Of a DNA stretch of 64,000 nucleotides, positions 4,475-64,000 are shown piece by piece. The position numbers were made by a program, and so were the translations under genes. Every line of letters begins with the position of its first letter. Positions within the stretch are counted from its first letter, which is position 1. Below the pieces are notes generated by a model that saw only the letters and a list, made by a program, of their open reading frames with translations, was not told the origin of the DNA and searched no databases. Source of the stretch: Massalongia carnosa (taxonomy: Eukaryota); the NCBI GenBank assembly GCA_965645245.1, contig OZ287087.1, forward strand, positions 434,001 through 498,000. The letters are read 5' to 3'.

Positions 4475-4589
4475 GAGGGGCCCTCAGCAAAACTGAGCGC
4501 CAGCAGGGCAGCAGCGAGGGGAGAGTTGCCCAAACATAGATAGAAATTATATATATGTTCAGCTGACACGATGGAGCCCGCGAATTACC

Positions 4590-5160
4590 CATATAACTCT
4601 TGACCACTGCTCAAAAGTCCACTCACGCCGCAGCAAACACCAATCCAATCGTTTCTTGGCCACCTCAGGCGTCAATAAAGGTCGTTTTTTAGCCACCCAG
4701 TTGATTAAACCATACAGTTTGAGTGCCCGATAAATGGTCGTACGACTGCAGGCGAGCCCCACTTCTAGTTTGATTTGTGCATAAGTGATTCGTGGATTGA
4801 TCCGTGCATGCTTGATGATATAAAGTCGATCGCGTTCTGACAGCACTTCAGGCCGTCCAGAGCGTGATTTAGACACGCTGTCGTTGCGAATTGGGAACTT
4901 CTGAATGGTGCTCTGCACGGTCGATTTAATGAAATTAAGAGTCTTCCCAATCTCGGTCGGTGTGTGCCCCAACGCCTGGGCCCCAAAAATCGTACCACGT
5001 TGATATGGCGTCAACTCAGTGTTACGAGGCCGATTACCACTTATGGGGGTCAAAGAAGCACGAAGCATGGTGAAATGATGTGGTGGAAGATGGGGGGTTG
5101 ATGAGTTGAAAACGCGAAATCACGAAAATCACGGGTTGGGCCGCAGACTTTTGGCACGGG
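4590..5160 (-). mobile_element. 5' fragment of a Tc1/mariner transposon (HTH region only, truncated before DDE)
   Basis: ORF 4559-5068 with SRSGRPEVLSERD, RTTIYRAL, AKKRPLLT and WSRVIW; Tc1-like terminus TA|CCCGTGCCAAAAGT on the minus strand near 5160. Confidence 0.8.
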
Positions 5161-5632: not shown

Positions 5633-6728
5633 AAGTGAATCTATAATTTCATATACAGCACCGTTTGGTCCCTGGTGAGCAGATATTGGCCACTTCAGCG
5701 AGTTTCTAAGAATCATAGAAGGTGTTACTAGTCAGCACCACGTAGAGGTTTCTGCTCGTCGCTGACCACAATGGTTATGAGACTCAAGCAGGAAAAGATC
5801 TAATTTCAATGGAGTTAGTTATTGCTTGACTACGCTCGGCCTATCTCAAAGTCACAAGGGCAGATATAACAGTTATCCCTATTTGATAGCACCTCTTGCG
5901 CAGAGAGGACTGCAACATCCAGAATCTCTACATGTAGTTTATAGTGCCAAGTCAGAATTGGCTTCGGAAGTTTGACGAGGCCGACGTTTTAAGCTGAGAG
6001 CTCAAGTGATTTTCCTCTAGCATTCGTTGCTCTGATCAGTTTCAATCAGGCAAAAGTCTTGACAGTGCAAGTCCAGTATCCTTCAAAACCCTCTTCTTCT
6101 TCCTCCTCTTTCTCCTTCTCTTCTACCTCTCCCCGCATAGCAAAGCCGTTTCCCTATCAGCATCATCATCCACTACCTCAGGAACTTTGTCTACCATTTA
6201 GCATCGAGCATAATCCTCCCCATGACGAGAAAGCAAACGTTATTCAAGTCGCTTCTCACGGCGGAACCAACCAGTATCTTTATTATGTAGGTCGGAAAGC
6301 CGGCGAAGACACACCTCAGCTTCCTTCAGCCCGTTCAGTAGACCTCATTCATCCCAAAGCTCAATGAAAGACTCGAGTGATGAAATGCTCAAGTACATCA
6401 AGACCTCCGTCGGGATTACGACAAGCGAGAAGGCAACTACGTTGATGAACATACAAGGACTCCTATTCGACGAAGACTGTCATTTTACAGTCAGACTTGG
6501 TCAAGTCTTGCGGGGGCTGGTAATGCACATTTTAGGTGTAGCTTCTTAAGGATTAAACTGATGAACGATGATTAACAGTACATCGCAGATCGAACCTTTT
6601 CATAACACTGTCATCACACCGTCGTCACGCCGACAAGGATATTACGATCACATCAGAAATAAGAGTCGAATCAGAAACTCACAATCAAACCCGTGAATTC
6701 AGCGATCATGTTAAGCCATTGAATAACT

Positions 6729-8364
6729 TTATACTAGAATTTCGTTCAGCTTCATAAGTATCTAAAGACATTGTAAGCACGAGCTTTCCGTAAAAGCTGT
6801 ATAATTGATAAACCTTGTCAATGTATTTCACACCCACTAAGACACCATCCTGGTCTTCGAAGCCAAAATCTGCAATGTCTTGATCTAGGCAAGTCAGACA
6901 GTTTATCACAACTTCCTCGTATCGCTCTCCCATCCGCTTAGATAGATCGCGTTTCGCAACAGCGATCAGGCGCTCTTTAATCAGAGCTGGCTGTTTGAGT
7001 TCGGGGCTGTTCGAAGTAATGCCGAGTGCTGCGGCAGGAAGAGGGGCTGTCACACCATCCGCATATGATACGAATGAATCCCACAACCCAAAAGACAGAC
7101 ACCTAGGCTGTAGATGTCATGTTGCATAGTATAGATTTCCTCAGGGTTTAATCCCTGACGATGTGGGTGACGGTAGAGATTCTTCTCCCAAGTAGAGTCA
7201 TCTGACCGCCTTGTTCGACCATCTGCCGTGCGCATCTTCTCGAAACCGACAAGGAAGAACAAGCCAATCTCAGATTCATTAGTTTAACACCCAAGAATAT
7301 TCTCGGGCCGGACGTTCTTGTGCACAAAGCCAAGTGTATGGACATAGCTGATAGACTTGGCCAGTTGTTTTGCAAGCTGGAAACGGTCTGTAAGTGTATG
7401 ATCGAAATATGAGGAGAGATAACTCTGAAGACTTCTAGGCTCATTGCTGAGCTCTCTGGGTATTCGGAATATGAAATCAAAAGAGGATGATCTGCCGCTG
7501 CTGGGTTCTATAACTCGAACTACGCCGCGGCACTGAAGTATGCCGAATGTAAGAGGGTCCACAGAAGAGATTTTTCTTGCAAGCTCCCTTACATCTCTCG
7601 TCATCAAGCCTATGTCGACTTCCGGATCGCATGGGATGCGGTCTAGCACGAACCATTTGTCCGAACCAGCTCTCTGCATACACTTCGCAGATGCGAAAGG
7701 AATCTCGCGCATCCGCGCCGTCTGAAGTCCATCTTTTGGAAGGAAAACGGAGACTTTCTGAAAAGGCCGCTCCCTCAGAGCGTCTCTAAGGCTATGCGTG
7801 CCGGTGAACGAAGATATCGCCAACCCATTTCTGCTCAGCTCCTGGTCAATCAAGGGACTTGAGACCTTCAGGATTAAAAACCAAGATAGATCGAACAACT
7901 TCTGCCATGAGGTCAAATCCTCAATAGATTCATCAAGACATTTTTTAATAAGGACATATTTCAATTTATTTACTTCTGTAACCCAGCCCTTTGTTGCTTG
8001 ATTATCGGATCTCCTTTTAGACAGTTTAACAAGTTTAGAGGTTATGAGGCTTAATTTGTTGATTAGTACCTGGTAAATCCGATCCTGAATTGATTGATGT
8101 TCCTCGTCCAGGCCGTTCCATATCCGCTTGATAAAGTCTAGTTGTAAGTCTGTGCGTTTCCAGTGATTTTCTACGCAGAGTACTCGCTCATTTATCTCGG
8201 CCTCTGCGCCCTTGAAGGTTGCGCTTGTCTCGACAAGAATCTTAACATATCTGGATTGTGTCAGATGGCAGTGCAATAGAGAGAGAATGAAGACGAGCAA
8301 CTCACTTGATACATAGGTCGGCTGTTGCAAAAACAGCAAACGTTATCCCGACTACTTCTGCCAT
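6729..8364 (-). pseudogene. HeLo-like N-terminal domain plus pseudokinase (MLKL-like), copy 1, inactivated
   Basis: ATG at 8364 and intron 8305-8251. Compared with the intact copy at 59525-61179 it has an in-frame TAA at 7284-7286 (CAA in the intact copy), a 7-nt frameshifting deletion near 7090 and a 12-nt deletion near 6861. Confidence 0.85.
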
Positions 8365-8891: not shown

Positions 8892-11287
8892 ATGCCACCT
8901 ATTTCAGACCTTGTGCAGGTTTCAAAGCTCGAGACTCAATTCCACTCTGATCCGGAATATACGCAACACGTCCAGTACGTTTCTGGAAGTACGGCAAGAC
9001 AAAGAAAAGTTCGCATGGAGGAAAAATGGATGAGAGAAAGGATGCTAGGAAGCGGCAGTTTCGGGATCGTCTGGTTAGAGCGGTGTATTCATGGGAACAG
9101 TGAAGGGAAAGTACGAGCTGTAAAGAAGGTCCGAAAACTTGAGTCAAGCGATTATTACAGAGAATTGGAAGCTATTGCTCTGTTTTCTCACAGCAATGTA
9201 AGTCTACTGCTGTTATTTTTTCACAACCTACTTTTCCACACCTTACGCTAACGTCAAGCTAGTACGAACGATGCTTTGTTAAGTCCTTCGGCTGGTATGA
9301 TGATAGTGACAGCATATTTATTACTATGGAGTACCTTTCATATGGTGATTTGCATAAGTACCTCGGTTCACCGCTACCAGAGAAGGAAGGACAGCATATC
9401 GTTTTTCAGATCCTCGAAGGCTTACAATTCATGCATGATAAAGGGTTCGCTCACAGAGATTTAAAGCCAGCTGTAAGCCTAGCTACATGCATCAATAAAA
9501 TCAGAAAATTAGCTAATACTCTAATTAATACAGAACATACTAGTTGTGTGCAAAGGCCCAGATTGGTGGGTCAAGATCGCAGACTTTGGAATCAGCAAGC
9601 GGGCAACAGAGGGACTTACAGCATTAAGAACCCGAACAGGTACACCTGCTTTTACGGCACCAGAAGTACTCGGCATTATTCAATCGAACGACGAATCAAA
9701 TGATTCGTATACAAACGCTGTTGATATCTGGTCTCTAAGTGTTATCACATTCTTCATACTCACCGGCGAGATTCTTTTCAAAGACCCGCGCCGTCTAGGT
9801 AAGTATGTTGCGGGCAACTTTAAATTTCCTTTGAATGTCTTGCTTGTAAACAAAGTAAGCAGACAGGGATGCGACTTCTTAAAAAGCTCAATGGCGTCAA
9901 ATTCTGAGGATCGTCCAAGGGCTAATGAATGTTTACAACATTCGTGGTTGGATTTTCTTATAGAAGAGGCGGCTCCCGACACTCCAAGGTATTACTTCTT
10001 ATAGATGGAGACAGAAAATTATTATAATATCTTATAATAATAATATTGTAGTGTTGCTGATATCTTTGCAGAAAAATCAATGTTACAAAGCCAATGTCAA
10101 CACCGCTGGACTGTTCAGATCCTGAGCCCTCTGCTAGTTGGAGCACTCAAGACTCAATTTCGGCCTACGAGACGCATAGCTCTACGGGCGTGCTTACTAA
10201 ACAGACTTTGTCTACTTCCAAGGAAGCAGTCGCACCTTCAAAATCAGAACCAGCGACTCAAATCTATTGGCATATGGCAAGCATCCTCAAGGGTCATTCG
10301 AATTATGTTTGCGCGGTGGCGTTCTCGCCAGACGGGAAGCAGATCGCGTCCGCATCGTGGGACACGACGATCAGGCTCTGGGACTCGGCCACGGGGGCTT
10401 CGCGCAACATCCTCGAGGGTCATTCGGGTGAGGTTTTGGCGGTGGCGTTCTCGCCAGACGGGAAGCAGATCGCGTCCGCATCGTGGGACAGGACGATCAG
10501 GCTCTGGGACTCGGCCACGGGGGCTTCGCGCAACATCCTCGAGGGTCATTCGGGTTATGTTTTCGCGGTGGCGTTCTCGCCAGACGGGAAGCAGATCGCG
10601 TCCGCATCGTGGGACAGGACGATCAGGCTCTGGGACTCGGCCACGGGGGCTTCGCGCAACATCCTCGAGGGTCATTCGGGTTATGTTTTGGCGGTGGCGT
10701 TCTCGCCAGACGGGAAGCAGATCGCGTCCGCATCGTGGGACAGGACGATCAGGCTCTGGGACTCGGCCACGGGGGCTTCGCGCAACATCCTCGAGGGTCA
10801 TTCGGGTGGAATTCTGGCGGTGGCGTTCTCGCCAGACGGGAAGCAGATCGCGTCCGCATCGGCCGACACGACGATCAGGCTCTGGGACTCGGCCACGGGG
10901 GCTTCGCGCAACATCCTCGAGGGTCATTCGGGTGGAATTCGCGCGGTAGCGTTCTCGCCAGACGGGAAGCAGATCGCGTCCGCATCGGCCGACAGGACGA
11001 TCAGGCTCTGGGACTCGGCCACGGGGGCTTCGCGCAACATCCTCGAGGGTCATTCGGGTGAGGTTTTGGCGGTGGCGTTCTCGCCAGACGGGAAGCAGAT
11101 CGCGTCCGCATCGTGGGACAGGACGATCAGGCTCTGGGACTCGGCCACGGGGGCTTCGCGCAACATCCTCGAGGGTCATTCGGGTTATGTTTTCGCGGTG
11201 GCGTTCTCGCCAGACGGGAAGCAGATCGCGTCCGCATCGAACGACACGACGATCAGGCTCTGGGACTCGGCCACAGGGGCGGCGTAA
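8892..11287 (+). CDS. Ser/Thr protein kinase fused to 8 highly conserved WD40 repeats, copy 1 (about 728 aa, intact)
   Basis: Exons 8892-9197, 9263-9472, 9534-9988 and 10072-11287 splice in frame through three GT-AG introns. Kinase motifs [38 protein letters not shown]; Ser/Thr-rich linker; GH...WD repeats of 42 aa. Confidence 0.92.
10292..11284 (+). repeat. Coding tandem repeat, 8 x 126 bp (WD40)
   Basis: Consensus GHSxxV/[37 protein letters not shown]; units nearly identical at DNA level. Confidence 0.97.
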
Positions 11288-14200
11288 TATGGTTTCCCAG
11301 TACCTAGAAAAGTTTTTCACATAGAAAATTATTACGACCTCCTTCCCCACCCACCTCCATCGCCCTTTACGTCCTTATATACCATTTTAATCATTGGATT
11401 ATTAATTCCTGCTTCAAAGAATGTCGCTCTACTTTGATTTCTAAGCTACTTCGAAACTCTTGTCCTGGAATGTACTTTGCTTTGAAATCCTAAGTCACGG
11501 CGTATAACGACCTCGCGGTTAAATAAGCTTTACCATTAAGTTATTGGAATTTGCCGAGATACCTGAATATTTGCGACCGAGGTTCTTTTGCCTCCTGCTT
11601 ACTAATTTCCAGTTTAGGCAGTCATATGCTATATGCGAAAAGCTTCAGATATCGGCACGACTTCTGCAACTACGAGGAGGCAAAAGTATGCAGCAAGAAT
11701 GCTACATTTCGGAGGCAATTCAGCTGTTCATGATCACTGAGTGTCTCGGTGTCTCCGGTCAGCAACGAGGTGTATTTTGCCCAGCTGAAAAGGTTCAAAG
11801 GAAGCAGGTTCATGCATTTGATATAGGCCGAGATGGAGGCCCTCAAGCAGTATAAAGAGACGATGATTCCTCATGTAATTTAGCTATTCAGTCGTTCAGA
11901 ATTCAGTTCAGCAGATAGCTAAATTTGGAGTATCTTCACTGGAAATACGGAGTACCTGCATCACGTTTGCCAAGCACTTCTCTTTGCCTATCCTTGATAG
12001 CCCTAGACCCTCTTCTCCTGCATCCCGCTGCCGTATGCCTGGTTGATTTTTTGTTCAACATAAGTTAACCGACCTATTAGCCTTGTAGGACGAATAGGCA
12101 CAAATCTGTAGTGAGAAACTTCAGTGCTTATTCTAGTACGTGTACGATAGAGGCACATTAATCAGAAAACGACAGTATAAACGCAAACAGAAAAAAGTAA
12201 CCTTTCCAAAAACGCAGAATAAAGAACGTAGCTTCAGGCGACGTCACTACATCACAAACCAAATGCTGTTCCGCTGCCATCAAAACGAGACGAATGCAAA
12301 TCTACGGCGGACGGTAAATACCAAACCGCCATAACGAAATTCTTGAGTTTCGAATCGCGACATTGCGACGAAAAAACAACGTACATTTATAATTCCACGC
12401 TTTCTTCTCTTCCCATTTCTTCCTCTCTATATATAAAGTTAGTATAGTTCAATGATGGGACTTCGTACGATCTGAAACATACTCTTCAACCTTGTCTGAT
12501 ATGCTTAAAGTGTCAACCTGCGCTGCCGCCTACTCTCGAGACAACTGATCATCAGGGTTGTCTTCTACAGAAGACAACGAGACGGTTGTCTCAATTGTAC
12601 GACGCTCTGACGCAGACGCAGACGACGAAAGAGGGAGTGCCACATGAGAGAACTGTTGCGTTAAGGGGGGAATAGGTCTGACGATCGCGTACACTCCGTC
12701 TATGATGATGATGATGATAAATTCTTACACCGATATGTCACCGGCCGAAGGCCGGCCCATGCGGGCGTGGTTCTATATGACTATTGTACATAGGAAAACC
12801 TTTTAAGGAATAAAAACCTAGTAACCAAAATTATCGCCTGCGGGATCCCCATGACCCCTCAGTGTACCTAATAACGTGTATCTGTGAGGTCCTTGAAAGA
12901 AAACGGAAAAGAACGAAAGAAAAGGGGAGGAAGTCAAACATTTCAAATGCTGTGTCGACGGGAACTATCCGTACAGCATGGTTGCTGCAATTGAATACTG
13001 TTTTAGTATATCTGCCCGCATTAACCATGCTGTCAGCTTTTTCAATTTTGCGGAATTTTCAATTATCGTGCGATAATTGTTAGTTTTCACTTGATTAAAT
13101 AATTCATTTCTTCCGTCTATCAGCTGACAGTGCATGATGACGTGTTTGGCCGTCTGCCTTGGCCATCCACATATGCACGCCGGTGAGTTTACATTGGGTA
13201 CCCTTCGGTTGAAAAGAAAGTTGGCTAGCCCGATTTTCTCCGTGCGAATTTGCGTTGCTAGTGAACTCTCCGCTTTTGCCAAATTGCTGTGAATTTTTAA
13301 TCTCTTTTTGTCAAGCGAAGCTTGTTGAGCTTCGGTGGGGAGTGGAATACGATTTTGATAAGTCGCCCATGTTGACTTCCTTATTTTCATATGATGCTCC
13401 ATGAGCCGCGTATAATGTGCCCGTTGGGCCGTTCGCGCTTCTCTCAGCTCCTTGAGATATTCTGGACTGGCCTCGTACCACGGGGGCGCGGAAGGCGGTA
13501 ATCTGACGGCGGCCTCTCCATTTAAAATTGCCTTGGCCCATGTGTGTTTCAGTTCTCCGGGTGTTGGCGGCGGAGTTTTTCTTCGACCCGCTCTTTCCCG
13601 TAGCTTATTAGCTATTATCTTGCATGCGGAGTTAGCGAGTGCTTTTTGCCCCGTGATTCGTAGTCGATATCTGGCTTTAGCCTGTAGTTGATCCAAATAC
13701 ACATCTATTGGGGCTATGTGTGTTTCTGCCTCCAGCACCGGTATCAGGGTATCCTTGAACGCTCCGGCGACTGTGCGTAGGCATCTGTTCTGAATGACCA
13801 CCAATTTGGACGTTATAGATTTATTTCTATTTACGTCTTTCGGTTGTGCCAGACGATTGAACCATATGTCATGGCTAGCCGCACCACCGCCGTTTATACT
13901 TGCCTAGCCCTAGCGAACGAAGCTCCCCAGGTAGACGTGGAAATTTTTGTTAAGGCCATGCTCTGCTTGACCATCTTCTCCTGCGTTTTCCGTATGTGTT
14001 GAAGACAGAGTATTCTTATATCCGCTTTTGGTTTGATTAGGCTGTTTTCTATATTAATAGTAGCCGTCATATCAAATTTCTTTGGATTACTAGATAAATG
14101 AATAAGCTCGTACTTAGTCGGAGCAAATAAGGATCCGTGCCGTAGAGCCCATCTTTCACATTCTCTGTGAATTCTTTCTAGCGTTCTGCAATTTTCTTGC

Positions 14201-15529
14201 GTGCTTTTCCCATATGCTAGTACATTGATGTCATCGACGAATCCGAGTCCGCTCGTTTTCGTGCCGGGCCTGTTACATATGTCTAGTAAATCCGCATTGT
14301 AGAACAAATACAGAATGGGAGAGATAGGTGAACCTTGCGGAATTCCGGTTCTCGCATCAAACTCGTCGGTGGTTCGTCGGTTGACTAAGAATGATAAAAT
14401 AGAGTTGACATCTCCTTCGTGAAGTCTCTATCCCAGTTTTCGTTCATCTCACTGGTGCGTTTTACGGCCCAAGACTATTGATGAATTCTACGATTGGGGT
14501 GAACGACGTCCCTTTCGCCCAGGTCAAACCCAGTTTACTCCTTAAGCATATATCAAGGGCGAGTCTAGCCGTAGCCCATGCGCCGGCGAACCGACGGGTT
14601 CTCGTTACGAGCGAGATAGACATTCCCTGCTCTATATACACCGACATGCGCATACTGTCCTCTCGGGCTATGCAGACGGTCTCCGTACGGTGGCCGCCAT
14701 TGCATACCACGCCTCACGGGTTTATTACGCCCACTTCGCGTTATTCATAAAGGTCTCCCGTTTATGAACCGACCATGTCTCGCAGGGATTTCGACCACTA
14801 TGCTCCTGACCAGGCAGTATAGTATCGATTTTCCGTCCCTACTAACCAAAACGAGTCGAGGACAACTCGGAGGGGTGCTCGTTTGAAATTCGTCTATTAG
14901 CTCAGGGCCTAGAGTGTTATCTATTAACGGGTTCCTCGTACATTGCCCTCTTCTTGTCCCAAGGGTGTCCTATTTGATGACTAGGTTGCCTCCACCATCC
15001 CCAGTACGACTCCGGTTCGGGCCGTGTTGCTCACGGTAGCCATCAATCGGATGGTTTTCATAACCCAAATCCCTTGTATCGTGTAGGGTGTGACCCTACA
15101 CTATGTGTCTATATGTTTTTTTCTTTCAGCCGGAGGGCTCCGTGTTGTAGACGAAGGAGACCCGTGTGATAGACATAGCTGACCCGTGTCGTACGTCTTT
15201 AGCTCTCAGCCGATGACTGCATGAAAGGACTTGAACCTTTAAGAGTATGACCGAACATTGTTAACGAGGTCTATGAAAATCTTATTAACGAGGTCTTCGA
15301 GAACAATATTAACGAAGTTCCGCTGAACTCTTTTCATTCGTTTTGTGATCCATCGAGGTCTACCCGTGTCAAATCCACACTATGCCCGTGTCAAAATACA
15401 TTATTTTCAGCTGATGAATGCTAGAAAGAACTTGAACCTCTAAAAATATGTACTCCGATATTAACGGGGTGCAGATCTTTCTTAACGAGCCCCCGCAGAT
15501 CCCCCTTTACAGGGACGTGTTATTGATTT

Positions 15530-15665
15530 GTGACTGTGTTTTTTGTGACTGTTTGTTTTGTGACTGTGTGTTTCATGACTGTGTGATTGTGACTGTATAT
15601 TTGTGACTGTGTGCTTTGTGACTGTGTGCTTTGTGACTGTGTGCTTTGTGACTGTGTGCTTTGTA
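15530..15665. repeat. Minisatellite, 15-bp unit GTGACTGTGTGCTTT
   Basis: About 8 degenerate tandem copies; a shorter inverted version lies at about 40305-40420. Confidence 0.85.
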
Positions 15666-16149
15666 CAACGTGTGATTGATGACTATGTGTTTTGTAACTC
15701 TCTGTTTTCCTCGATTTTATTTAACAGGCCGGGCCTATTAAATGGGATATTGTTATTCTGCTCCGAGATGGAGTTTTCTTGAGGTGACAGCATTCGCCCC
15801 GGTGCCTTTACGCGTTCTGTTGATCCCAGCTGATGACTGCATGGGGAGACTTGAACTCTCAGGAGCTAGAACGCGTGTCGACTGTGCCCGGGTGGGGGAT
15901 GATGCGGCTCCTTTGGTCCACATCTTCTTCCAGCTGATGACTGCATGAAGGGACTTGAACCCTTAGAAGCATGGTGCAGGGACGCGCGCATTCTACCCCT
16001 GGCGGTTGGCCTTCGTATCCTCTTCCGTACGTACGTCTGCGACGCGTGTGAACGCGTTAAATTAGTATTGTTTTGATGCGAAGAGATAGGAGCAAATCTA
16101 TATGTTTGACGGTCGCCCCACGGTGAGGCCTTTGGCGTCTCCGTGGTGA

Positions 16150-16262
16150 GGACCGATGGTCCAATGGTGTAGAAGGAGGAGGACCGATGGTGTAGAAGGA
16201 GGAGGACCGATGGTGTAGAAGGAGGAGGATCGATGGTGTAGAAGGAGGAGGACCGATGGTGT
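16150..16262. repeat. Tandem repeat, about 23-bp unit GGAGGACCGATGGTGTAGAAGGA
   Basis: 4-5 contiguous copies without spacers. Confidence 0.85.
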
Positions 16263-18279
16263 AGGATAGTGTCGGACCGTTCTTATTGATCTGGAAAATG
16301 ATGTTCTCCTTGTCTATCTAAACTGGAAATTCTAGCTAGCTATATAGACCATTTCGCCACATTCTTTCATAATCTAGATATCTTCCAGCCACTTCTATTT
16401 ACTAATAGATCATTAGTGATCCGGAACCCATGCGAGGTACAATGCTTTGAAATCATTGAGTATTAGAAATCAGATATATGGCATAGAAAGAAATAGCATC
16501 TGAAAGATCGAGGCCTCGGTTATTAGTCCGAAATCACGTGCTTCTCCTTCAACAGGATCTTACTTCGGGAATTGGCTTGAACCACGGTCTATTAATATCG
16601 ACAGAAAGCAATGATTTATGATGTGATAATAATATAATAATGTAATAGTAAATGTGAGAGTAATTTAAATGATCGACGAGGAAGGATGTTGCAATCGCAA
16701 CAAATAATTAGCTGCACCGCGAACGAATTGCAATCTTATTGATAATTCAATATCATCAAAAAATTCAATATACTCCTTCAGGGTTACACTCCGTCTATAA
16801 CATAATTAAATAAAGCAATAAGATTCTCACATATTTTAGACATTACGTACGATATCGGCATTGAGCCGAAGCATCTCCCCAAACGCAATTGGCACACGCG
16901 CCTTCTCTCAAGACATCTAAACCATAGCATCCAATGAAGGGCCCCGATCCTCGTACGCAACGCTTGCACGGAAGATGACGAAGAGCCCCTCGAGATGCTA
17001 TGATTAGAGCTTAAATATAAGAAGACCGGGCTCGTTCAATCTGATGTGCCTTGATCCCTTCCGCATGCCTTAATTGCACATTGCGACCCGTGGGACGTCG
17101 CAATAAGAAAACACGCAATTCTTCGTGCAAGGCATACGGAAGTAACTAAATCAAATTAGAAACATGAATAACAATATGAGACAAGAACTTACCTCAGGAG
17201 CTGCAGTCCGCACCATCATAGAATAAGCGAGAATGTCAGCGGCAGAAGACAAAGACGGCACTGAACATAATATATCAGTTCGTACGAGTCACTTACTGTT
17301 AGATAGATAAATGATATCACATACCGGAAGACATAGTGATGAGGACAATGATGAAAGAAAGAAAGAAGAAAAAATAAGTGAGCTAGAAGACTGCACATGA
17401 TGATATTCACTGTCACAACACGAGCTTGCGTTATTCACCCGTACGTTTCATTATTAGACTTTCATATCTATATAGTACTGAAAGAGTTACCCTGCTACTT
17501 TGGGCAAAACTACCTCATTCGGTTAGATCAAATCTATATATTACTGAAAGAGTTCCCCTGCTACTTTGGGCAACACTACCTCATTCGGTTAGATCCTACC
17601 TCATGCGGTTAGGTTTAACCCGAAAAAGGGAACGCGGCTTGCGGAACAGTACTGAGTTATCAAATAATGCGGAGAGGACGCCGTACGGAAAGGACCAAAA
17701 AGAGGCACCTCATTGCGAGCATGCATTTTATCGTATGATATCGTAAAACTTTGCAGACCTACTAATCACATCAACCATAGTCGATATCTCGAAACTTGCG
17801 TGCTTTTTCGCCTGTTTGCGGTGGGGGGAGGAGGTCTCTTTGCGAAGCATCAGATTTTCTTTGAAATCGTCCATAAGAGATTTAGCGCGGACTCGATTGG
17901 GTTTACGGTGCTTTTTTTGTTATTTACCTATCATCGCAGCTCTTTTCATCCTAGCCTTTTCATCGCAGCTCCTTTTACCGCTGAATATCAACGTGAACTC
18001 GATACAGGAATATTAACGGAAGATACTTTGACGAAAAAAATTGACGATGATATAGATAAGACTCGAGACGGACGAGCTTATAATCACGTCAAACGACATA
18101 TAATAGAAAATCGGGTTGGAAGGGAGAAAACGGAGTCGATTAATTTTAAGCTTCTAGAGTGTCTCATTATCGACAGCTTCGAGAAAATAGACGAATTCAA
18201 GATGCACGAGACCAAAAAGCTAAAGCAGCTATGCGAAAAGCGGCGGAAAAAGAAAATTGATAACGAGGGAGATAGATAT

Positions 18280-18840
18280 TGAGGCTATTCAAGAGGCTAT
18301 CTGATAGCTATTTGGGAAACTATTTGGGAGACTATTTGAAAGGCTATTTGAAAAGCAGCGGAGATTATCTGGGAGACTATTTGGGAGGCTAATTGGAAAG
18401 CTATTTGGGAGGCTATTTGGGATATTATTTGATAGCTAAGCAGAATATCTGGAAGGCTATTTGGGAGGCTATTTGGAAGACTATTTGAAAGCGGTGAAGA
18501 TTATCTGGGAGGCTATTTGGGAGGCTTTATGCGAGGCTTTATGCAAGGCTATTTGAGATACTATCTGAAAAGCAGCGGAGACTATTTGGGAGGCTATTGA
18601 TAGCTATTTGGGGGAATATTTGGGAGACTATTTGGGAGATATTTGAGAGATACTTGGAAGGTAATTGAAGGGCTATTTGGGAGGCTATTTGAAAGGCTTT
18701 TTGGGAGGCTTTTGGGAGGCTTTTGGGAGGCTATCTGGGAGACTATTTGAAAAGCAGCGGAGACTATTTGAAAGCTATTTAGGGGCTAGATGTGGGGCCT
18801 TTAAAAATCAGCGGAGGCTATCTGGGAGACTATTTGGAAG
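18280..18840. repeat. Degenerate 12-bp minisatellite (GGGAGGCTATTT)n
   Basis: Dozens of imperfect GGGAG[GA]CTATTT units over about 560 bp. Confidence 0.9.
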
Positions 18841-24602: not shown

Positions 24603-25632
24603 TCCTTTCAGTTTATTCTGTCTCTTCTTTAGCTTTGAAAGACTTGAAATCATAGCTAAAAACACCAATATTAAAGCGAAAAAGAAGTATGTCCTAAACG
24701 ACATCAAGAGACGTCAATGGCATGACACCTCTTCTTCTGAAGTAGGAGCTTTTCTGGAAATTCTGTTATATATGGGGTATACACTGATGCCACGTCTTAC
24801 TGACTATTGGAACACGTCTCCTAAATTTGCCATACATGACATGGTGATTCAAGCCATGAGTCTTCGAAGATGGGAGCAACTCAAGCGAGTTTTGAAGATA
24901 TCCAACTCCGACGAAAATGAGATCATTGATACTCGAGGCCCTGATTGGTGGAAAAAGCTGGAACCATTGGCCACAGACTTTCGAAAAGCATCAAAGAAAT
25001 ACTGGATTCCTGGAAGTCATGTATCAGTTGACGAGCAATTGATTTTATTCAGGGGTAGGAGCTGCCATACTATGCAAATAGCCACCAAGGCGGCTGGTGT
25101 AGGCTTCAAAATCTATAGTTTATGTCAGGAAAATTATCTTTTTGACTTCTTATTTACCTCCAAGGTGAGTAGAAAAGGCCTCAATTTGCATCGTACTAAT
25201 TGCAAGACAGGTGTCCAAAATTAGTGAGTTAAAAACGCCAGGACAATTGAAATTTCCGTCAACCAAATGGGATTTGTCTCCTTTCTCCCTAGTCGTCATT
25301 CAACTGGCTCGAAGTTTACCGTCTGATGAAGGCTTGAAATACGTCATCTTTCTGGACAACTTCTTCACAAATACGAAGCTATTCAAAGCTCTGAAAACCA
25401 TTGGAATTGGTGCCTGTGGGACGGCTAAATCTGGATGCGGTTTTCCTGTTGATCTTCTACGTCTGAGGGTTGCAGTCACCAAGAATAAGGACTGGGGAAA
25501 GAAGGCATTGATGACGGTACCTGCAAATAAAAGTAAAAAATCAAACATTGATGACGGGGACATTCTGTGTATGGCATGGGTGGATTTAAACACCGTGCAA
25601 TTCATGACCACGGTTCATACAATTGATGATTT

Positions 25633-26055
25633 TGTCACGGAATCGCTTCGCACCCTCCCGCTTGTCCTGATCGGGTTTGTATTTAACAGGGCCCATTGCT
25701 GTCATCCATCGTGCTCAGGCGTTCTTCTGCCGCCCTCAGCGGACTATCAATCTCCTACAATCCGCATCCAATCTCAACGTCTCCACTATCCAGGCTTATG
25801 ACTGAGAGTGCTTCAGCACAGATAAAGGCGGGATAGGTCAAAGCAATCATGTTAGGAAATTAGTACAGGAACAGAGACGGGGCAAGTCGAGAATAGGAGA
25901 GTTGAAAGCCATGGGTATAAAGTCTATGTGGTTTCCCAGGTGTTTAGAGCTCTTCATCCGACGTCTTGTGTATTATTCTCTACTTCTAGTTTTAGCATAT
26001 CTAGATATCCGTTCTGCAAGATAGAGTCTTGTATCTCTCCAGCCCTCCCCTGACA
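25633..26055. repeat. Solo LTR
   Basis: TGTCA...TGACA ends; 5-bp TSD GATTT; interrupts the piggyBac transposase frame. Confidence 0.85.
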
Positions 26056-29887: not shown

Positions 29888-32157
29888 ATGCCACCTATTT
29901 CAGACCTTGTGCAGCTTTCAAAGCTCGAGACTCAATTCCACTCTGATCCGGAATATACGCAACACGTCCAGTACGTTTCTGGAAGTACGGCAAGACAAAG
30001 AAAAGTTTGCATGGAGGAAAAATGGATGAGAGAAAGGATGCTAGGAAGTGGCAGTTTCGGAATCGTCTGGTTAGAGCGGTGTATTCAAGGGAACAGTGAA
30101 GGGAAAGTACGAGCTGTAAAGAAGGTCCGAAAACTTGAGTCAAGCGATTATTACAGAGAATTGGAAGCTATTGCTCTGTTTTCTCACAGCAATGTAAGTC
30201 TACTGCTGTGATTTTTTCACAATACACGTTTTCACACTTTAAGCTAACGTCAAACTAGTACGAACGATGCTTTGTCAAGTCCTTCGGCTGATATGATGAT
30301 AGCGACAGCATATTCATTACTATGGAGTACCTTTCATATGGTGATTTGCACAAGTACCTCGGTTCACCGCTACCAGAGAAGGAAGGACAGCATATCGTTT
30401 TTCAGATTCTTGAAGGCTTACAATTCATGCATGATAAAGGGTTCGCTCACAGAGATTTAAAGCCAGCTGTAAGCCTAGCTACATGCATAAATAAATCAAA
30501 AACATTACCTAATACTCCAAGTAATACAGAACATACTAGTTGTGTGCAAAGGCCCAGATTGGTGGGTCAAGATCGCAGACTTTGGAGTCAGCAAGCGGGC
30601 AACAGAGGGAATTACAGCATTGAGAACCCAAAGAGGCACACCTGCTTTTACGGCACCAGAAGTACTCGGCTTGATTCAATCGAACGACGAATCAAATGAT
30701 TCGTATACAAAAGCTGTCGATATCTGGTCTCTAAGTGTTATCACATTCTTCATACTCACCGGCGAGATTCTTTTCAAAGACCCGCGCCGTCTAGGTCAGT
30801 ATGTTGCGGGCAACTTTAAATTTCCTTTGGATGTCTTGCTTGTAAACAAAGTAAGCGGACAGGGATGCGACTTCTTAAAAAGCTCAATGGCGTCAAAGTC
30901 TGAGGATCGTCCAAGGGCTAATGAATGTTTACAACATTCGTGGTTGGATTTTCTTATAGAAGAGGCGGCTCCCGACACTCCAAGGTATTACTTCTTATAG
31001 ATGGAGACAGAAAATTATTATAATATCTTATAATAATAATATTGTAGTGTTGCTGATATCTTTGCAGAAAAATCAATGTTACAAAGCCAATGTCAACACC
31101 GCTGGACTGTTCAGATCCTGAGCCCTCTGCTAATTGGAGCATTCAAGACTCAATCTCGGCCTACGAGACGTATTGCTCTACGGGCGTGCTTACTAAAAAG
31201 ACTTTATCTACTTCTAAGGAAGCAGTAGCATCTTCAAAATCAGAACCAGCGACTCAAATCTATTGGCATATGGCAAGCATCCTCAAGGGTCATTCGGATT
31301 CTGTTCAGGCGGTGGCATTCTCGCCAGACGGGAAGCAGATCGCGTCTGCATCGTGGGACACGACGATTAGGCTCTGGGACTCGGCCACGGGGGCTTCGCG
31401 CAACATCCTCAAGGGTCATTCGGGTGGGATTCGTGCGGTGGCATTCTCGCCAGACGGGAAGCAGATCGCGTCTGCATCGAGCGACACGACGATCAGGCTC
31501 TGGGACTCGGCCACGGGGGCTTCGCGCAACATCCTCAAGGGTCATTCGGGTGGGATTTGGGCGGTGGCATTCTCGCCAGACGGGAAGCAGATCGCGTCTG
31601 CATCGTGGGACACGACGATCAGGCTCTTGAACTCGGCCACGGGGGCTTCGCGCAACATCCTCAAGGGTCATTCGGGTGGGATTCGGGCGGTGGCATTCTC
31701 GCCAGACGGGAAGCAGATCGCGTCTGCATCGTGGGACACAACGATCAGGCTCTGGGACTCGGCCACGGGGGCTTCGCGCAACATCCTCAAGGGTCATTCG
31801 GGTGGGATTCGTGCGGTGGCATTCTCGCCAGACGGGAAGCAGATCGCGTCTGCATCGATGGACACGACGATCAGGCTCTGGGACTCGGCCACGGGGGCTT
31901 CGCGCAACATCCTCAAGGGTCATTCGGATTCTGTTCAGGCGGTGGAATTCTCGCCAGACGGGAAGCAGAGCGCGTCCGCATCGTGGGACACGACGATCAG
32001 GCTCTGGGACTCGGCCGCGAGGGCTTCGCGCAACATCCTCAAGGGTCATTCGGATTCTGTTCAGGCGGTGGCATTCTCGCCAGACGGGAAGCAGATCGCG
32101 TCCGCATCGTGGGACATGACGATCAGGCTCTGGGACTCGGCCACCTGGGCGGCGTAA
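29888..32157 (+). pseudogene. Kinase-WD40 copy 2 (7 repeats), nonsense mutation in exon 2
   Basis: Same exon structure (29888-30193, 30259-30468, 30530-30984, 31068-32157). TGG to TGA at 30289-30291 in frame. WD repeats also carry changes at otherwise invariant positions (LLNS, VEFS, KQSA). Confidence 0.88.
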
Positions 32158-58100: not shown

Positions 58101-59524
58101 CCTTGTACCCATTATTAGCCGACCCGAGCGCAATAGTGAGTTCTGTGATCAACGCGAAGCCTTGGATGAAGGCATAGTCTTGAAGACGAGTCTTCGCCTT
58201 CTTTCAAGACGAAACTAACTCATTCTCTTGCCGAGGGAGGAGGCGAGATGGGGCAATGGCATGTTGCTTCCGTGCATCCAAAGAAGTGGGATCGGACTCC
58301 ATCGCGATGAGGAGTAATAAAGTATATAATATGAGGTATAGCATAAGTGGAAGGGGAGATTTAGGGAGGGCAAAGGTGAGGGTGAGGGCATGCTTTATCA
58401 GACCGAGTATGGTAATTATTAGTAGCAATAAAAACGTGATACAATTTAAACCGAAAAGAGTTTAATGTGCTGTTGACAGCTGCATTACTAGCTTGTACGC
58501 ACCCTGGATGAGTAGTAAAATGACTGTTTACTAGCAAAGATTTACACAGGGGGACGGTCGGGGGGACTGTCCCTAAGCATCTCGAAGCAGGAAAAGATCT
58601 CATTTCAATGGATTTAGTTATTGCTTGACTACGCTCGGCTTATCTCAAAGTCACAAGGGCAGATATAACAGTTCTCCCTGTTTGATAACACCTCTTGCGC
58701 AGAGAGGACTGCAGCTTCCAGAATCTCTACATGTGGTTTTTAATGCCAAGTCAGAATTGGCTTCGGAAGTTTGACGAGGCCGACGTTTTAAGCTGAGAGC
58801 TCAAGTGATTTTCCTCTAGCATTCGTTGCTCTGATCAGTTTCAATCAGGCAAAAGTCTTGACAGTGCAAGTCCAGTATCCTTCAAAACCCTCTTCTTCTT
58901 CCTCCTCTTTCTCCTTCTCTTCTACCTCTCCCCGCACAGCAAAGCCGTTTCCCTATCATCATCATCATCCACTACCTCAGGAACTTTGTCTACCATTTAG
59001 CATCGAGCATAATCCTCCCCATGACGAGAAAGCAAACGTTATTCAAGTCGCTTCTCACGGCGGAACCACCCAGTATCTTTGTCATATAGGTCGGAAAGCC
59101 GGCTAAAACACACCTCGGCTCCCTTCAGCCCGTTCAGTAGACCTCATTCATCCCAAAGCTCAATGAAAGAGTCGAGTGATGAAATGCTCAAGTACATCAA
59201 GACCTCCGTCGGGATTACGACAAGCGAGAAGGCAACTACGTTGATGAACATACAAGGACTCCTATTCGACGAAGACTATCATTTTACAGTCAGACTTGGT
59301 CAAGTCTTGCGGGGGCTGGTAATGCACATTTTAGGTGTAGCTTCTTAAGGATTAAACTGATGAACGATGATTAACAGTACATCGCAGATCGAACCTTTTC
59401 ATAACACTGTCATCACACCGTCGTCACGCCGACAAGGATATTACGATCACATCAGAAATAAGAGTCGAATCAGAAACGCACCAAACCCGTAAATTCAGCG
59501 ATCATGTTAAGCCATTGAACAACT

Positions 59525-61179
59525 TTATACTAGGATTTCGTTCAGCTTCATAAGTATCTAAAGACATTGTTAGCACGAGCTTTCCGTAAAAGCCGTATAA
59601 TTGATAAACCTTGTCAATGTATTTCACACCCACTAAGACACCATCCTGGTCTTCGAACTCGCTCTGATCGCCAAAATCTGCATTGTCTTGATCTAGGCAA
59701 GTCAGACAGTTTATCACAACTTCCTCGTATCGCTCTCCCATCCGCTTGGATAGATCGCGTTTCGCAACAGCGATCAGGCGCTCTTTAATCAGAGCTGGCT
59801 GTTTGAGTTCGGGGCTGTTCAAAGTAATGCCGAGTGCTGCGGCAGGAAGAGGGGCTGTCACACCATCCGCATATGATACGAATGACTCCCACAACCCAAC
59901 CTCCAAAAGACAGACACCTAGGCTGTAGATGTCATGTTGCATGGTATAGATTTCCTCAGGGTTCAATCCCTGACGATGTGGGTGACGGTAGAGATTCTTC
60001 TCCCAAGTAGAGTCACCTGACCGCCTTGTTCGACCATCTACTGTGCGCATCTTCTCGAAACCGACAAGGAAGAACAAGCCAAACTCAGATTCATTAGTTT
60101 GGAAGCCAAGAACAGTCTCGGGCCGGACGTTCTTGTGCACAAAGCCAAGTGTATGGACATAGCTGATAGACTTGGCCAGTTGTTTTGCAAGCTGGAAACG
60201 GTCTGTAAGTGTATGATCGAAATATGAGGAGAGATAACTCCGAAGACTTCTAGGCTCGTTGCTGAGCTCTCTGGGTATTCGGAATATGAAATCAAAAGAG
60301 GATGATCTCCCGCTGCTGGGTTCCATAACTCGAACTACACCGCGGCACTGAAGTATGCCGAATGTAAGAGGGTCCACAGAAGAGAGTTTTCTTGCAAGCT
60401 CCCTTACATCTCTTGTCATCAAGCCTATGTCGACTTCCGGATCGCATGGGATGCGGTCTACCACGAACCATTTGTCCGAGCCAGCTCTCTGCATACACTT
60501 CGCAGATGCGAAAGGAATCTCGCGCATCCCCGCCGTCTCAAGTCCATCTTTTGGAAGGAAAACGGAGACTTTCTGAAGAGGCTGCTCCCTCAGAGCGTCT
60601 CTAAGGCTATGCGTGCCGGTGAACGAAGATATCGCCGACCCATTTCTGCTCAGCTCCTGATCAATCAAGGGACTTGAGACCTTCAGGATTAAAAACCAAG
60701 ATGGATCGAACAACTTCTGCCATGAGGTCAAATCCTCAATAGATTCATCAAGACATTTTTTAATCAGGACATATTTCAATTTATTTACTTCTATAACCCA
60801 GCCATTTGTTGCTTGATTATCGGATCTCCTTTCGGACAGTTTAACAAGTTTAGAGGTTATGAGGCTTAATTTGTTGATTAGTACCTGGTAAATCTGATCC
60901 TGAATTGATTGATGTTCCTCGTCCAGGCCGTTCCATATCCGCTTGATAAAGTCTAGTTGTAAGTCTGTGCGTTTCCAGTGATTTTCTACGCAGAGTACTC
61001 GCTCATTTATCTCGGCCTCTGCGCCCTTGAAGGTTGCGCATGTCTCGACAAGAATCTTACCATATCTGGATTGTGTCAGATGGCAGTGCAACAGAGAGAG
61101 AATGGAGACGAGCAACTCACTTGATACATAGGTCGGCTGTTGCAAAAACAGCAAACGTTATCCCGACTACTTCTGCCAT
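59525..61179 (-). CDS. HeLo-like N-terminal domain plus pseudokinase (MLKL-like architecture), intact, about 515 aa
   Basis: Predicted exons 61179-61121, 61065-59610 and 59557-59525 (second donor GTTTAT is weak). N-terminus MAEVVGITFAVFATADLCIKYGKIL. Kinase C-lobe motifs RFQLAKQLAKSISYVH, VHKNVRPETVL, LVGFE, YRHP, HDIYSLGVCLLEVGLW. No Gly-rich loop or VAIK lysine recognisable. Confidence 0.88.
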
Positions 61180-61734: not shown

Positions 61735-64000
61735 ATGCCACCTATTTCAGACCTTGTGCAGGTTTCAAAGCTCGAGACTCAATTCCACTCTGATCCGGAA
61801 TATACGCAACACGTCCAGTACGTTTCTGGAAGTACGGCAAGACAAAGAAAAGTTCGCATGGAGGAAAAATGGATGAGAGAAAGGATGCTAGGAAGCGGCA
61901 GTTTCGGGATCGTCTGGTTAGAGCGGTGTATTCATGGGATCAGTGAAGGGAAAGTACGAGCTGTAAAGAAGGTCCAAAAACTTGAGTCCAGCGATTATTA
62001 CAGAGAATTGGAAGCTATTGCTCTGTTTTCTCACAGCAATGTAAGTCTACTGCTGTTATTTTTTCACAACCTACTTTTCCACACCTTACGCTAACGTCAA
62101 GCTAGTATGAACGATGCTTTGTTAAGTCCTTCGGCTGGTATGATGATAGTGACAGCATATTTATTACTATGGAGTACCTTTCATATGGTGATTTGCATAA
62201 GTACCTCAGTTCACCGCTACCAGAGAAGGAAGGACGGCATATCGTTTTTCAGATCCTCGAAGGCTTACAATTCATGCATGATAAAGGGTTCGCTCACAGA
62301 GATTTAAAGCCAGCTGTAAGCCTAGCTACATGCATCAATATAATCAGAAACTTAGCTAATACTCTAAGTAATACAGAACATACTAGTTGTGGACAAAGGC
62401 CCAGAGTGGTGGGTCAAGATCGCAGACTTTGGAGTCAGCAAGCGGGCAACAGAGGGACTTACAGCATTAAGAACCCAAAGAGGCACACCTGCTTTTATGG
62501 CACCAGAAGTACTTGGCTTTATTCAATTGAACGACGAATCAAATGATTCGTATACAAACGCTGTTGATATCTGGTCTCTAAGTGTTATAACATTCTTCAT
62601 ACTCACCGGCGAGATTCTTTTCAAAGACCCGCGCCGTCTAGGTCAGTATGTTGCGGGCAACTTTAAATTTCCTTTGAATGTCTTGCTTGTAAACAAAGTA
62701 AGCAGACAGGGATGCGACTTCTTAAAAAGCTCAATGGCGTCAAAGTCTGAGGATCGTCCAAGGGCTAATGAATGTTTACAACATTCGTGGTTGGATTTTC
62801 TTATAGAAGACGCGGCTCCTGACACTCCAAGGTATTAATTCTTATAGATGGAGACTGAAAATTATTATAATATCTTATAATAATAATGTTGTAGTGTTGC
62901 TGATATCTTTGCAGAAAAATCAATGTTACAAAGCCAATGTCAACACCGCTAGACTGTTCAGATCCTGAGCCCTCTGCTAGTTGGAGCACTCAAGACTCAA
63001 TTTCGGCCTACGAGACGCATAGCTCTACGGGCGTGCTTACTAAAAAGACTTTGTCTACTTCTAAGGAAGCAGTAGCACCTTCAAAATCAGAACCAGCGAC
63101 TCAAATCTATTGGCATATGGCAAGCATCGTCAAGGGTCATTTGGGTTCTGTTCGGGCGGTGGCATTCTCGCCAGACGGGAAGCAGATCGCGTCCGCATCG
63201 GGGGACACGACGATCAGGCTCTGGGACTCGGCCACGGGGGCTTCGCGCAACATCCTCAAGGGTCATTTGGCTTCTGTTCGGGCGGTGGCATTCTCGCCAG
63301 ACGGGAAGCAGATCGCGTCCGCATCGGGGGACACGACGATCAGGCTCTGGGACTCGGCCACGGGGGCTTCGCGCAACATCCTCAAGGGTCATTCGGGTTA
63401 TGTTCGGGCGGTGGCATTCTCGCCAGACGGGAAGCAGATCGCGTCCGCATCGGGGGACACAACGATCAGGCTCTGGGACTCGGCCACGGGGGCTTCGCGC
63501 AACATCCTCAAGGGTCATTCGGGTGATGTTCGGGCGGTGGCATTCTCGCCAGACGGGAAGCAGATCGCGTCCGCATCGGGGGACACGACGATCAGGCTCT
63601 GGGACTCGGCCACGGGGGCTTCGCGCAACATCCTCAAGGGTCATTCGGATTATGTTCAGGCGGTGGCATTCTCGCCAGACGGGAAGCAGATCGCGTCCGC
63701 ATCGTGGGACAATACGATCAGGCTCTGGGACTCGGCCACGGGGGCTTCGCGCAACATCCTCAAGGGTCATTCGGGTGATGTTGAGGCGGTGGCATTCTCG
63801 CCAGACGGGAAGCAGATCGCGTCCGCATCGAAGGACACAACGATCAGGCTCTGGGACTCGGCCACGGGGGCTTCGCGCAACACCCTCAAGGGTCATTCGG
63901 GTGCAATTTTCGCGGTGGCATTCTCGCCGGACGGGAAGCAGATCGCGTCCGCATCGCGGGACACGACGATCATGCTCTGGGACTCGGCCACGGGCGTGCT
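61735..64000 (+). CDS. Kinase-WD40 copy 3, open to the window edge (at least 7 repeats)
   Basis: Exons 61735-62040, 62106-62315, 62377-62831 and 62915 to the end; all catalytic motifs intact; no stop codon seen. Confidence 0.9.

Follow-up and report, generated by a model that had tools for sequence, protein, structure and literature searches.

In a 64,000-nt stretch of the genome of Massalongia carnosa (assembly GCA_965645245.1, contig OZ287087.1, positions 434,001 to 498,000 of the forward strand; hereafter, the window), we found three paralogous genes that join a serine/threonine (Ser/Thr) kinase part to an array of WD40 units in which a few fixed codons differ from unit to unit. The variable codons change at least 10 times faster than the neutral sites of the surrounding scaffold, and this result is robust. 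Our data indicate that diversifying selection at these codons is the best reading, likely though not proven. We consider it reasonably probable that the three genes are tandemly dispersed receptor-kinase paralogues that lack a nucleotide-binding and oligomerization domain (i.e., are NOD-less) and carry a highly internally conserved (HIC) WD40 propeller, and that this diversifying sensor and its kinase signal to an adjacent pseudokinase as one module.

Whole-codon variation at fixed positions of the WD40 units

Tandem Repeats Finder (TRF) resolved a 126-nt period in each paralogue, at 10277-11280 in copy 1 (8.0 copies, 94% matches), 31273-32144 in copy 2 (6.9 copies, 94% matches), and 63120-63994 in copy 3 (6.9 copies, 95% matches). 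The 42 codons of a unit were numbered from the G of GH as codon 1, such that unit i of copy 1 starts at 10292+126(i-1). This gave 22 units in total: eight in copy 1, seven in copy 2, and at least seven in copy 3, whose array runs into the window end with its seventh unit incomplete. HIC units are those with more than 85% identity, and the 42-residue units found here belong to this class, their arrays reaching 94-95% matches. None of the 22 units contains a stop codon.

A first-pass annotation of this DNA had described whole-codon hypervariability after GH and before D in all three paralogues, and this observation is correct and non-random. The interval that it marked, 10292-11284, coincides exactly with copy 1's run of eight WD40 units of 126 nt, the motif strings that it listed agree with the translation in 22 of 22 units, and the codon before D (codon 23) indeed takes eight forms (TGG in 11 units, GGG in four, GCC in two, and AAC, AGC, ATG, AAG, and CGG in one each). 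The accompanying statement that synonymous sites elsewhere are almost invariant is roughly right. The proportion of synonymous differences (pS) over the 37 scaffold codons is 0.051 across all 231 unit pairs; most of these differences are array-specific markers at codons 10 (GCG/GCA), 20 (TCC/TCT), and 42 (GAG/AAG).

Across the 22 units, 22 of the 42 codons are invariant and codons 3 and 6 show minor variation. Codon 4 takes four forms, codon 5 seven, codon 7 ten, codon 23 eight, and codon 25 five. Thirteen of the 15 nucleotide columns in these five codons vary, compared to 31 of 126 in the whole unit. Codons 5, 7, 23, and 25, which were named beforehand from work on Podospora (hereafter, the a priori codons), hold 26 of the 49 extra codon types where 4.7 are expected (binomial P = 1.8e-14). 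Change at the hypervariable positions often involves the whole codon, with all three bases differing in 82, 54, and 44 of the 231 unit pairs at codons 5, 7, and 23, respectively. Repeat-induced point mutation was set aside as a cause, since the codon replacements seen here (e.g., GCC or AAC for TGG) do not consist of C-to-T transitions.

Placement of the variable codons on the WD40 propeller

In the HNWD proteins of Podospora anserina, codons 7, 9, 25, and 27 are reported to be under positive selection; they are situated in the d-a loop and b-c turn at the propeller's top face and flank conserved positions 8 and 26 (Paoletti 2007, PMC1805685). Here, codons 5 and 7 flank V6 and codons 23 and 25 flank D24, an offset of two from the HNWD pairs. 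The likeness to the HNWD pattern that had been proposed for this DNA holds codon by codon, as variable codons 5, 7, 23, and 25 are the four HNWD codons reported to be positively selected. Furthermore, the portion of Wu et al. (2012) available to us places top-face hotspots, derived from 29 WD40 complexes, at R1 and R1-2 of the fingerprint (V/L/I)-R1-R2-(V/L/I) and at D-1, before the tetrad Asp. By that rule as given there, V6-x7-A8-V9 and x23-D24 make codon 7 the R1 position, codon 5 the R1-2 position, and codon 23 the D-1 position, and codons 4 and 25 flank these hotspot codons. A single-sequence AlphaFold model of the propeller, of low confidence (predicted local distance difference test, pLDDT, 48.5), has strands at unit positions 6-11, 17-22, 27-30, and 37-41 in all blades. 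At this confidence, the predicted strand pattern is consistent with a d-a loop location for codons 4 and 5, with codon 7 opening strand a, and with a b-c turn that holds codons 23 and 25.

The kinase-WD40 genes

The DNA of the window is eukaryotic, with introns of the form GTAAGT...YAG, and the splice sites and gene structure are common to all three copies (Table 1). Under a GT..AG splice model, copy 1 exons 8892-9197, 9263-9472, 9534-9988, and 10072-11287 join into one open frame of 728 aa. Exons 1 to 3 match Pkinase in Pfam (E = 8.9e-22 on exon 3) and exon 4 matches WD40 eight times, with only approximately 100 residues between the kinase and the first WD40 unit. The motifs GSGSFG, VRAVKK, HRDLKPAN, DFG, and APE are all found in the spliced product, and the copy 1 Ser/Thr kinase is apparently active. 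Among the Pfam matches on the four copy 1 exons there was no NACHT, NB-ARC, or HET domain, only Pkinase/PK_Tyr_Ser-Thr and WD40-type families. Because they lack HET and NACHT domains, the kinase-WD40 genes are neither HNWD genes nor NOD-like receptor (NLR) genes.

Two further stretches of the copy 1 product are conserved in the kinase-WD40 family across several fungal classes, namely an N-terminal motif, PDLVxxSKLETxFHSDPEY, within residues 1-45 (window 8892-9026) and a second motif in the linker (window 10072-10290). These motifs could be docking or regulatory elements.

Over 5.4 kb that take in an upstream gene, copies 1 and 3 share 95.6% identity, and the similarity of copy 2 to the other copies extends over 2.6 kb only. 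In copy 2, a TGG>TGA change places a stop at kinase residue 113 (W113*, 30289-30291), several units carry changes that break the WD motif (e.g., W30L and D31N), and all seven units are still open. Copy 2 is probably a pseudogene whose repeats remain open and, by analogy with the proposal made for the NWD pseudogenes of Podospora, it may act as a reservoir of units.

A head-to-head partner gene encoding a pseudokinase

Copies 1 and 3 each lie head-to-head with a second gene, the start codons of the pair being approximately 0.5 kb apart; no partner gene is present upstream of copy 2 in the window. Homologues of the partner are 450-560 aa long. Across 24 of them HRD is replaced by HKN and DFG by GFE (H, K, G, and F are invariant and E is kept in at least 90%), and because these replacements are conserved we regard the partner as a pseudokinase. 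MLKL likewise has GFE in place of DFG. Matches of the partner to Pkinase are weak (E 2e-8 to 7e-4, Pfam), and the best matches of its profile in PDB are B-Raf and RIPK1. Exon 1 of the copy 3 partner encodes an N-terminal hydrophobic helix. A structure model of the partner has four long helices (residues 2-32, 39-68, 71-99, and 109-140) followed by a kinase fold, and Foldseek searches with this model returned full-length mouse MLKL (4btf) at rank 18 over 457 columns and AtMLKL3 of Arabidopsis (6ka4) at rank 49 over 598 columns. For the N-terminal 170 residues, the nearest Atlas clusters are 93-98% PF14479 HeLo (score 0.95, 182 shared features), and in one source homologues of the partner are labelled 'Het-s domain protein'.

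The copy 1 partner is a pseudogene, interrupted in frame by a stop (7284-7286) and having lost 7 bp near 7092 and 12 bp near 6862; the adjoining kinase-WD40 gene is intact. From its reading frames, only the copy 3 pair looks fully intact in the window.

Table 1. Kinase-WD40 genes, repeat array, and partner genes in the window.
Feature	Position	Strand	Description
Copy 1 kinase-WD40 gene	8892..11287	+	Ser/Thr kinase, ~100-aa linker, 8 WD40 units
Copy 1 WD40 array	10292..11284	+	8 x 126 nt; hypervariable codons 4, 5, 7, 23, (25)
Copy 2 kinase-WD40 gene	29888..32157	+	Exon structure as copy 1; 7 WD40 units from 31288
Copy 3 kinase-WD40 gene	61735..64000	+	Kinase part open; WD40 units from 63135, the 7th meeting the window end
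Copy 1 partner gene	6706..8364	-	HeLo-like four-helix N-terminus and pseudokinase; broken
Copy 3 partner gene	59502..61179	-	Intact; exon 1 ~61179-61120, intron, exon 2 ~61067 to stop at 59502

Relatives of the kinase and the partner carry consecutive locus tags on one contig in Psora testacea, Endocarpon pusillum, Brigantiaea leucoxantha, two Polycauliona species, and Ciborinia camelliae. In metagenomes, the partner adjoins the kinase in 22 of 79 loci, many of which are too short to tell, and where 3 kb or more of upstream sequence is available (41 loci), it stands head-to-head in 13. Judged from these gene orders, the pairing of kinase and partner is conserved across several ascomycete classes.

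Selection on the array could be real while the kinase has other substrates or serves as a scaffold, the adjacency of the two genes reflecting co-regulation only. Two close relatives (L002 and L003) fit this explanation, in that their partner gene is not head-to-head but follows downstream on the same strand, as do the many distant kinase relatives without a partner (a head-to-head partner is absent from 28 of the 41 loci with at least 3 kb upstream). However, the partner adjoins kinases down to 31-45% partner identity and in the six species named above, and it is a pseudokinase; in MLKL, according to the parts of PMC12881547 and PMC10197012 accessible to us, the pseudokinase domain is the docking and phospho-acceptor domain for RIPK3. 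We regard this explanation as somewhat unlikely, although it deserves to be taken seriously.

Relatives of the kinase and of the repeat array

Searches with the kinase exon retrieved kinase-WD40 proteins of 400-760 aa, mainly from lichen-forming fungi. The best relative is from Lobaria immixta (77%), and others include those of Sticta, Lasallia, Letrouitia, Psora, and Endocarpon, along with Ciborinia, Meristemomyces, and Elaphomyces. In other fungi the same kinase is fused to ANK (P0029, P0037, and P0042) or TPR (P0043) repeats. WD40, ANK, and TPR are the three repeat types of fungal NLRs.

In three of nine relatives' arrays (Lobaria, Letrouitia, and Endocarpon), these being the most internally conserved, we found that variability is again highest at positions 4, 5, 7, 23, and 25. 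Positions 5, 7, and 23 take four, five, and five residues in the five units of Lobaria, position 5 takes five residues in the seven units of Endocarpon, and the five positions take four to five residues each in the seven units of Letrouitia. The closest long relatives of the WD array are NACHT-WD40 proteins (some annotated HET-E-1), with at most 72% identity, and bacterial kinase-WD40 or STAND (signal transduction ATPases with numerous domains) proteins. The best solved matches to the family profile include the Nostoc HIC protein 2ymu (E = 6e-231), Apaf-1, and the WD40 domain of PkwA (E = 3.5e-118).

Among the relatives' metagenome loci, most of which are collapsed or short, only three have 126/127-nt arrays just downstream of the kinase (2.5-4.2 copies); a fourth such array, at locus L077, lies approximately 6.5 kb from the kinase. 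Five sequencing runs from three studies, one labelled lichen metagenome, contain approximately 0.6 of the sampled kinase-part words, and no RNA run with these words was among the runs listed. The comparison of isolates covered the non-repeat part and unit 1 only, with contigs of approximately 100-430 nt among the pieces listed and with the paralogues mixed. Contigs that continue past unit 1 bring further residue combinations at codons 4, 5, and 7 with the scaffold unchanged, a hint from these short sequences that the variant pool is larger than the 22 units of the window. The summed contig depth over the WD40 unit (window 10308-10417) is 15-23x that of the kinase part in runs X2, X3, and X5; this ratio is not a copy number, but it exceeds the approximately 7-fold expected from 22 units in three genes, and the genomes may hold many more such units.

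Turnover of repeat units within arrays

Units are more alike within than between arrays. Codon 10 is GCG in 8 of 8 copy 1 units and GCA in 13 of 14 others, codon 42 is likewise split between GAG and AAG, and units c1_2 and c1_7 are identical. A multi-nucleotide cassette, GGx-ATT (GGI), accompanies either marker at codons 10, 20, and 42, and the DxQ cassette accompanies either TCT or TCC at codon 20; these four-gamete patterns occur within 15-45 bp. Such a mosaic is expected where flanks are homogenised and cassettes persist. The scaffold is kept near-identical within arrays by unit turnover or gene conversion.

Tests of selection at the variable codons

Site models were run with our own code, rather than with PAML or HyPhy, on one IQ-TREE tree of the 22 units. 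With a single synonymous rate shared by all sites, M2a is preferred to M1a (twice the log-likelihood difference, 2dlnL, 52.6, p = 3.8e-12) and M8 to M7 (2dlnL = 59.0, p = 1.6e-13). The ratio of nonsynonymous to synonymous rates (omega) is approximately 11 for 9.4% of sites, naive empirical Bayes (NEB) selects sites 4, 5, 7, and 23, and the selection test still passes on a star tree (2dlnL = 157.6). In a test of the fixed effects likelihood (FEL) type, with a site-specific synonymous rate, codon 4 alone reaches significance (p = 0.022). Codon 5 falls short of it (p = 0.084), as do codons 7 and 23, and the nonsynonymous rate (beta) is below the synonymous rate (alpha) at codon 25; beta/alpha is 0.81 (p = 0.66) for the pooled a priori codons and 1.61 (p = 0.39) for pooled codons 5, 7, and 23. 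Thus the proposal that dN/dS exceeds 1 at the variable codons stands under M2a and M8, but the excess is not significant for the pooled codon sets once each codon has its own synonymous rate; the result is split, and the verdict depends on the neutral reference chosen. In a single-step, single-tree model, the local synonymous rate can be inflated by deep cassettes that selection maintains within homogenised flanks, by multi-nucleotide changes, and by recombination among units.

The scaffold has a beta/alpha of 0.36 (p = 0.02), and we therefore conclude that it is under purifying selection. Scaffold pS is 0.018-0.039 within arrays and 0.047-0.082 between arrays. The proportion of nonsynonymous differences (pN) at codons 4, 5, 7, and 23 is 0.48 for all pairs and 0.41-0.47 within arrays. 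In the non-repeat coding sequence, pS between paralogues is 0.035-0.071 and omega is 0.34-0.51.

We considered that there might be no positive selection at all, the loop codons being unconstrained, or mutating or converting fast, in a recently amplified repeat that is otherwise young and constrained, so that their diversity is a by-product of array turnover. This would account for the failure of the dual-rate tests to reject beta = alpha at the a priori codon sets, where the fitted synonymous rate is approximately 10x that of the scaffold (alpha 5.9-8.4 vs 0.58), and many of the changes are multi-nucleotide, with which single-step codon models cope badly. Relaxed constraint, however, predicts a pN no higher than the neutral pS, and M2a and M8 reject omega<=1. 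A mutational hotspot would need to track protein structure rather than DNA sequence, as the equivalent structural positions vary in arrays of other species with different scaffolds and in the unrelated Podospora NLR family. To our knowledge, no mechanism targets these codons. Overall, we find variation without positive selection unlikely. We prefer diversifying selection because variation at the contact positions extends to other species and to an unrelated NLR family, and because relaxed constraint alone cannot yield a pN of 0.48 against a pS of 0.05.

Each paralogue had also been assigned its own recognition specificity in the first-pass annotation. Distinct five-residue words number 20 in the 22 units, and none is common to different arrays, which fits different specificities but does not show them. 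Speaking of three specificities is overstated, as the copy 2 kinase and the copy 1 partner are broken and copy 3 is incomplete at the window end.

A proposed kinase-to-pseudokinase module

In the module that we favor, each paralogue would give this lichen-type ascomycete an apparently active Ser/Thr kinase, a linker, and an HIC WD40 propeller, and codon diversity in the propeller would be upheld by diversifying selection for recognition specificity, as proposed for the Podospora HNWD repeats. By analogy with RIPK3 and MLKL, binding of a ligand to the propeller would activate the kinase, and the kinase would act on the head-to-head four-helix (HeLo-like) pseudokinase, which has an MLKL-like build. 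The partner would then trigger a membrane-targeting or cell-death response, making the pair a RIPK3/MLKL-like two-gene module with a hypervariable sensor. A broader and more tentative proposal, which we consider less likely than not, is that of a fungal necroptosis-like NOD-less module. Here, a self-homogenising hypervariable propeller would sense a ligand (non-self, pathogen, or symbiont), the kinase would phosphorylate the divergently transcribed HeLo-pseudokinase acting as a 'fungal MLKL', and the cell would be killed or permeabilised. Such a module would belong to a modular receptor-kinase family with ANK or TPR sensors elsewhere, parallel to NLRs and expanded in lichen-forming fungi.

Several of our results weigh against the favored module. 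First, the codon-specific tests described above do not bear out omega>1 beyond codon 4, the site models disregard recombination among units, and codon-local hypermutation, or artefacts of multi-nucleotide change and recombination in a tree-based model, are possible sources of the signal. Second, we saw no sign of exchange between paralogues, as scaffold pS between them is similar to that of the kinase part. Third, two of the five gene copies are broken (the copy 2 kinase and the copy 1 partner). Finally, the structural evidence is of limited quality. The propeller model is too poor for a three-dimensional face to be drawn, and the mapping rests on the published sequence rule and the strand pattern. 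The partner model has a low mean pLDDT (60.6) and low template modelling (TM) scores to MLKL, 0.22-0.27. HeLo was found in none of six partner-family proteins at E<=1 in Pfam, and the evidence on the HeLo-type identity of the partner N-terminal domain is mixed.

That the genes are decaying relics with no current function in a transposon-rich region is highly improbable: the premature stop in the copy 2 kinase, the stop and frameshift in the copy 1 partner, the motif-breaking W30L and D31N of copy 2, and the abundance of long terminal repeat (LTR), Tc1, piggyBac-like, and long interspersed nuclear element (LINE)-type fragments would suit it, but the 22 units are free of stops, the scaffold has a beta/alpha of 0.36 and the non-repeat part an omega of 0.34-0.51, reading frames are open in the kinase-WD40 gene of copy 1 and in the copy 3 pair, and the gene pair is kept across several ascomycete classes.

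Comparison with known systems

The closest parallel is the HNWD/NWD family of Podospora anserina (HET-E, HET-D, as well as HET-R; PMC1805685, PMC4986451). Both have 42-residue WD40 units with approximately 94% DNA identity and hypervariability at the same two codon pairs, which flank a conserved V/I and a conserved D. Here, site tests with one synonymous rate for all sites indicate positive selection, with the split outcome given above; Paoletti used FEL and Suzuki-Nei. In both, units cluster by array, unit number varies among paralogues (here 8, 7, and at least 7), the surroundings are repeat-rich, and there are pseudogene members with open repeats, copy 2 paralleling the NWDp1/p2 pseudogenes. 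Unlike HNWD, the genes described here have no HET and no NACHT/NB-ARC domain but an apparently active kinase joined directly to the array, they give no sign of inter-paralogue unit exchange, their best WD identity to NACHT-WD40 proteins is 72%, and their host is a lichen-type fungus.

With the RIPK3-MLKL system of animals, as covered by the accessible parts of PMC12881547 and PMC10197012, the gene pair shares the combination of an active Ser/Thr kinase with a protein that has an N-terminal four-helix bundle and a pseudokinase. RIPK3 is described there as being recruited via the RHIM amyloid motif, in place of which we find a C-terminal WD40 array. Furthermore, the animal genes are unclustered, the structural similarity of the partner to MLKL is weak, and the system described here is known from genes alone. 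In fungi, S8/CHAT proteases fused directly to WD40/TPR/ANK lie next to gasdermin genes, and HELL domains on kinase/pseudokinase proteins are mentioned, according to the portion of PMC12881547 that we could consult. Like these NOD-less S8/CHAT sensors, as far as that portion describes them, our genes fuse an enzymatic signalling domain to superstructure-forming repeats and cluster with a membrane-targeting executioner gene; where those sensors have a protease and a gasdermin, our genes have a kinase and a HeLo-like pseudokinase. Bacterial Ser/Thr kinase-WD40 proteins (PkwA, PDB 5yzv) and the Nostoc HIC protein 2ymu resemble our genes in the kinase-then-WD40 order and in the match to the family profile, and differ in being bacterial. 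We know of no partner gene or hypervariable-site analysis for PkwA or 2ymu.

Hypervariable HIC WD40 repeats are already known from fungal NLRs. What appears to be new here is the NOD-less architecture of the kinase genes, their conserved pairing with an MLKL-like gene, and their spread in lichen-forming fungi, with only one of three loci fully intact. Our search of the open literature yielded no account of a kinase-HIC-WD40 gene that has a HeLo-pseudokinase as its partner; papers behind subscription were outside this search, and its result is not proof that the pairing is unpublished. Hypervariable internally conserved repeats in fungi have been studied almost only in NLRs, and here this sensor design is joined directly to a kinase, with an MLKL-like gene as its pair. 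The arrangement looks like that of an immune receptor built without the customary NLR core. If our reading is true, fungi would have death signalling from kinase to pseudokinase, of the RIPK3-to-MLKL type, with a diversifying receptor of its own, and the pair would make it possible to test, with two genes, what fungal immune-type receptors recognise. How lichen-forming fungi recognise their partners is unexplained, and the pair would be a candidate system for this. The split selection tests also call for caution, in that published claims of omega>1 for repeat arrays hinge on which synonymous rate serves as the neutral reference.

Surrounding DNA

A gypsy-type LTR retrotransposon lies just downstream of copy 2 (32680-39247), with gag, reverse transcriptase, RNase H, and integrase open reading frames (ORFs) at 33912-38614 on the minus strand. 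The direct repeats on either side of it are 533 bp long, include a 33-bp tandem repeat, and are 99.8% identical, and the insertion of the element therefore looks recent. Copia-type elements are present at 51494-56701 and 44236-47273, one with 342-bp LTRs that are 99.1% identical and the second a nearby fragment. Furthermore, the window contains Tc1/mariner fragments (4559-5068, 48520-49233, and 57138-57728), a piggyBac-like transposase (25211-26673), a reverse-transcriptase fragment (RVT_1, 2188-2868), and LINE-type fragments.

Other repeats in the window include an inverted duplication of 1.8 kb with 93% identity (14385-16188 vs 41565-39834) and a 412-bp repeat at 11574-11985 and 42460-42871 (96.6%). 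A degenerate 12-nt tandem repeat (18307-18749) closely follows an ORF at 17713-18282 and has approximately 38 copies, 67% matches, and higher-order periods of 46-80 nt.

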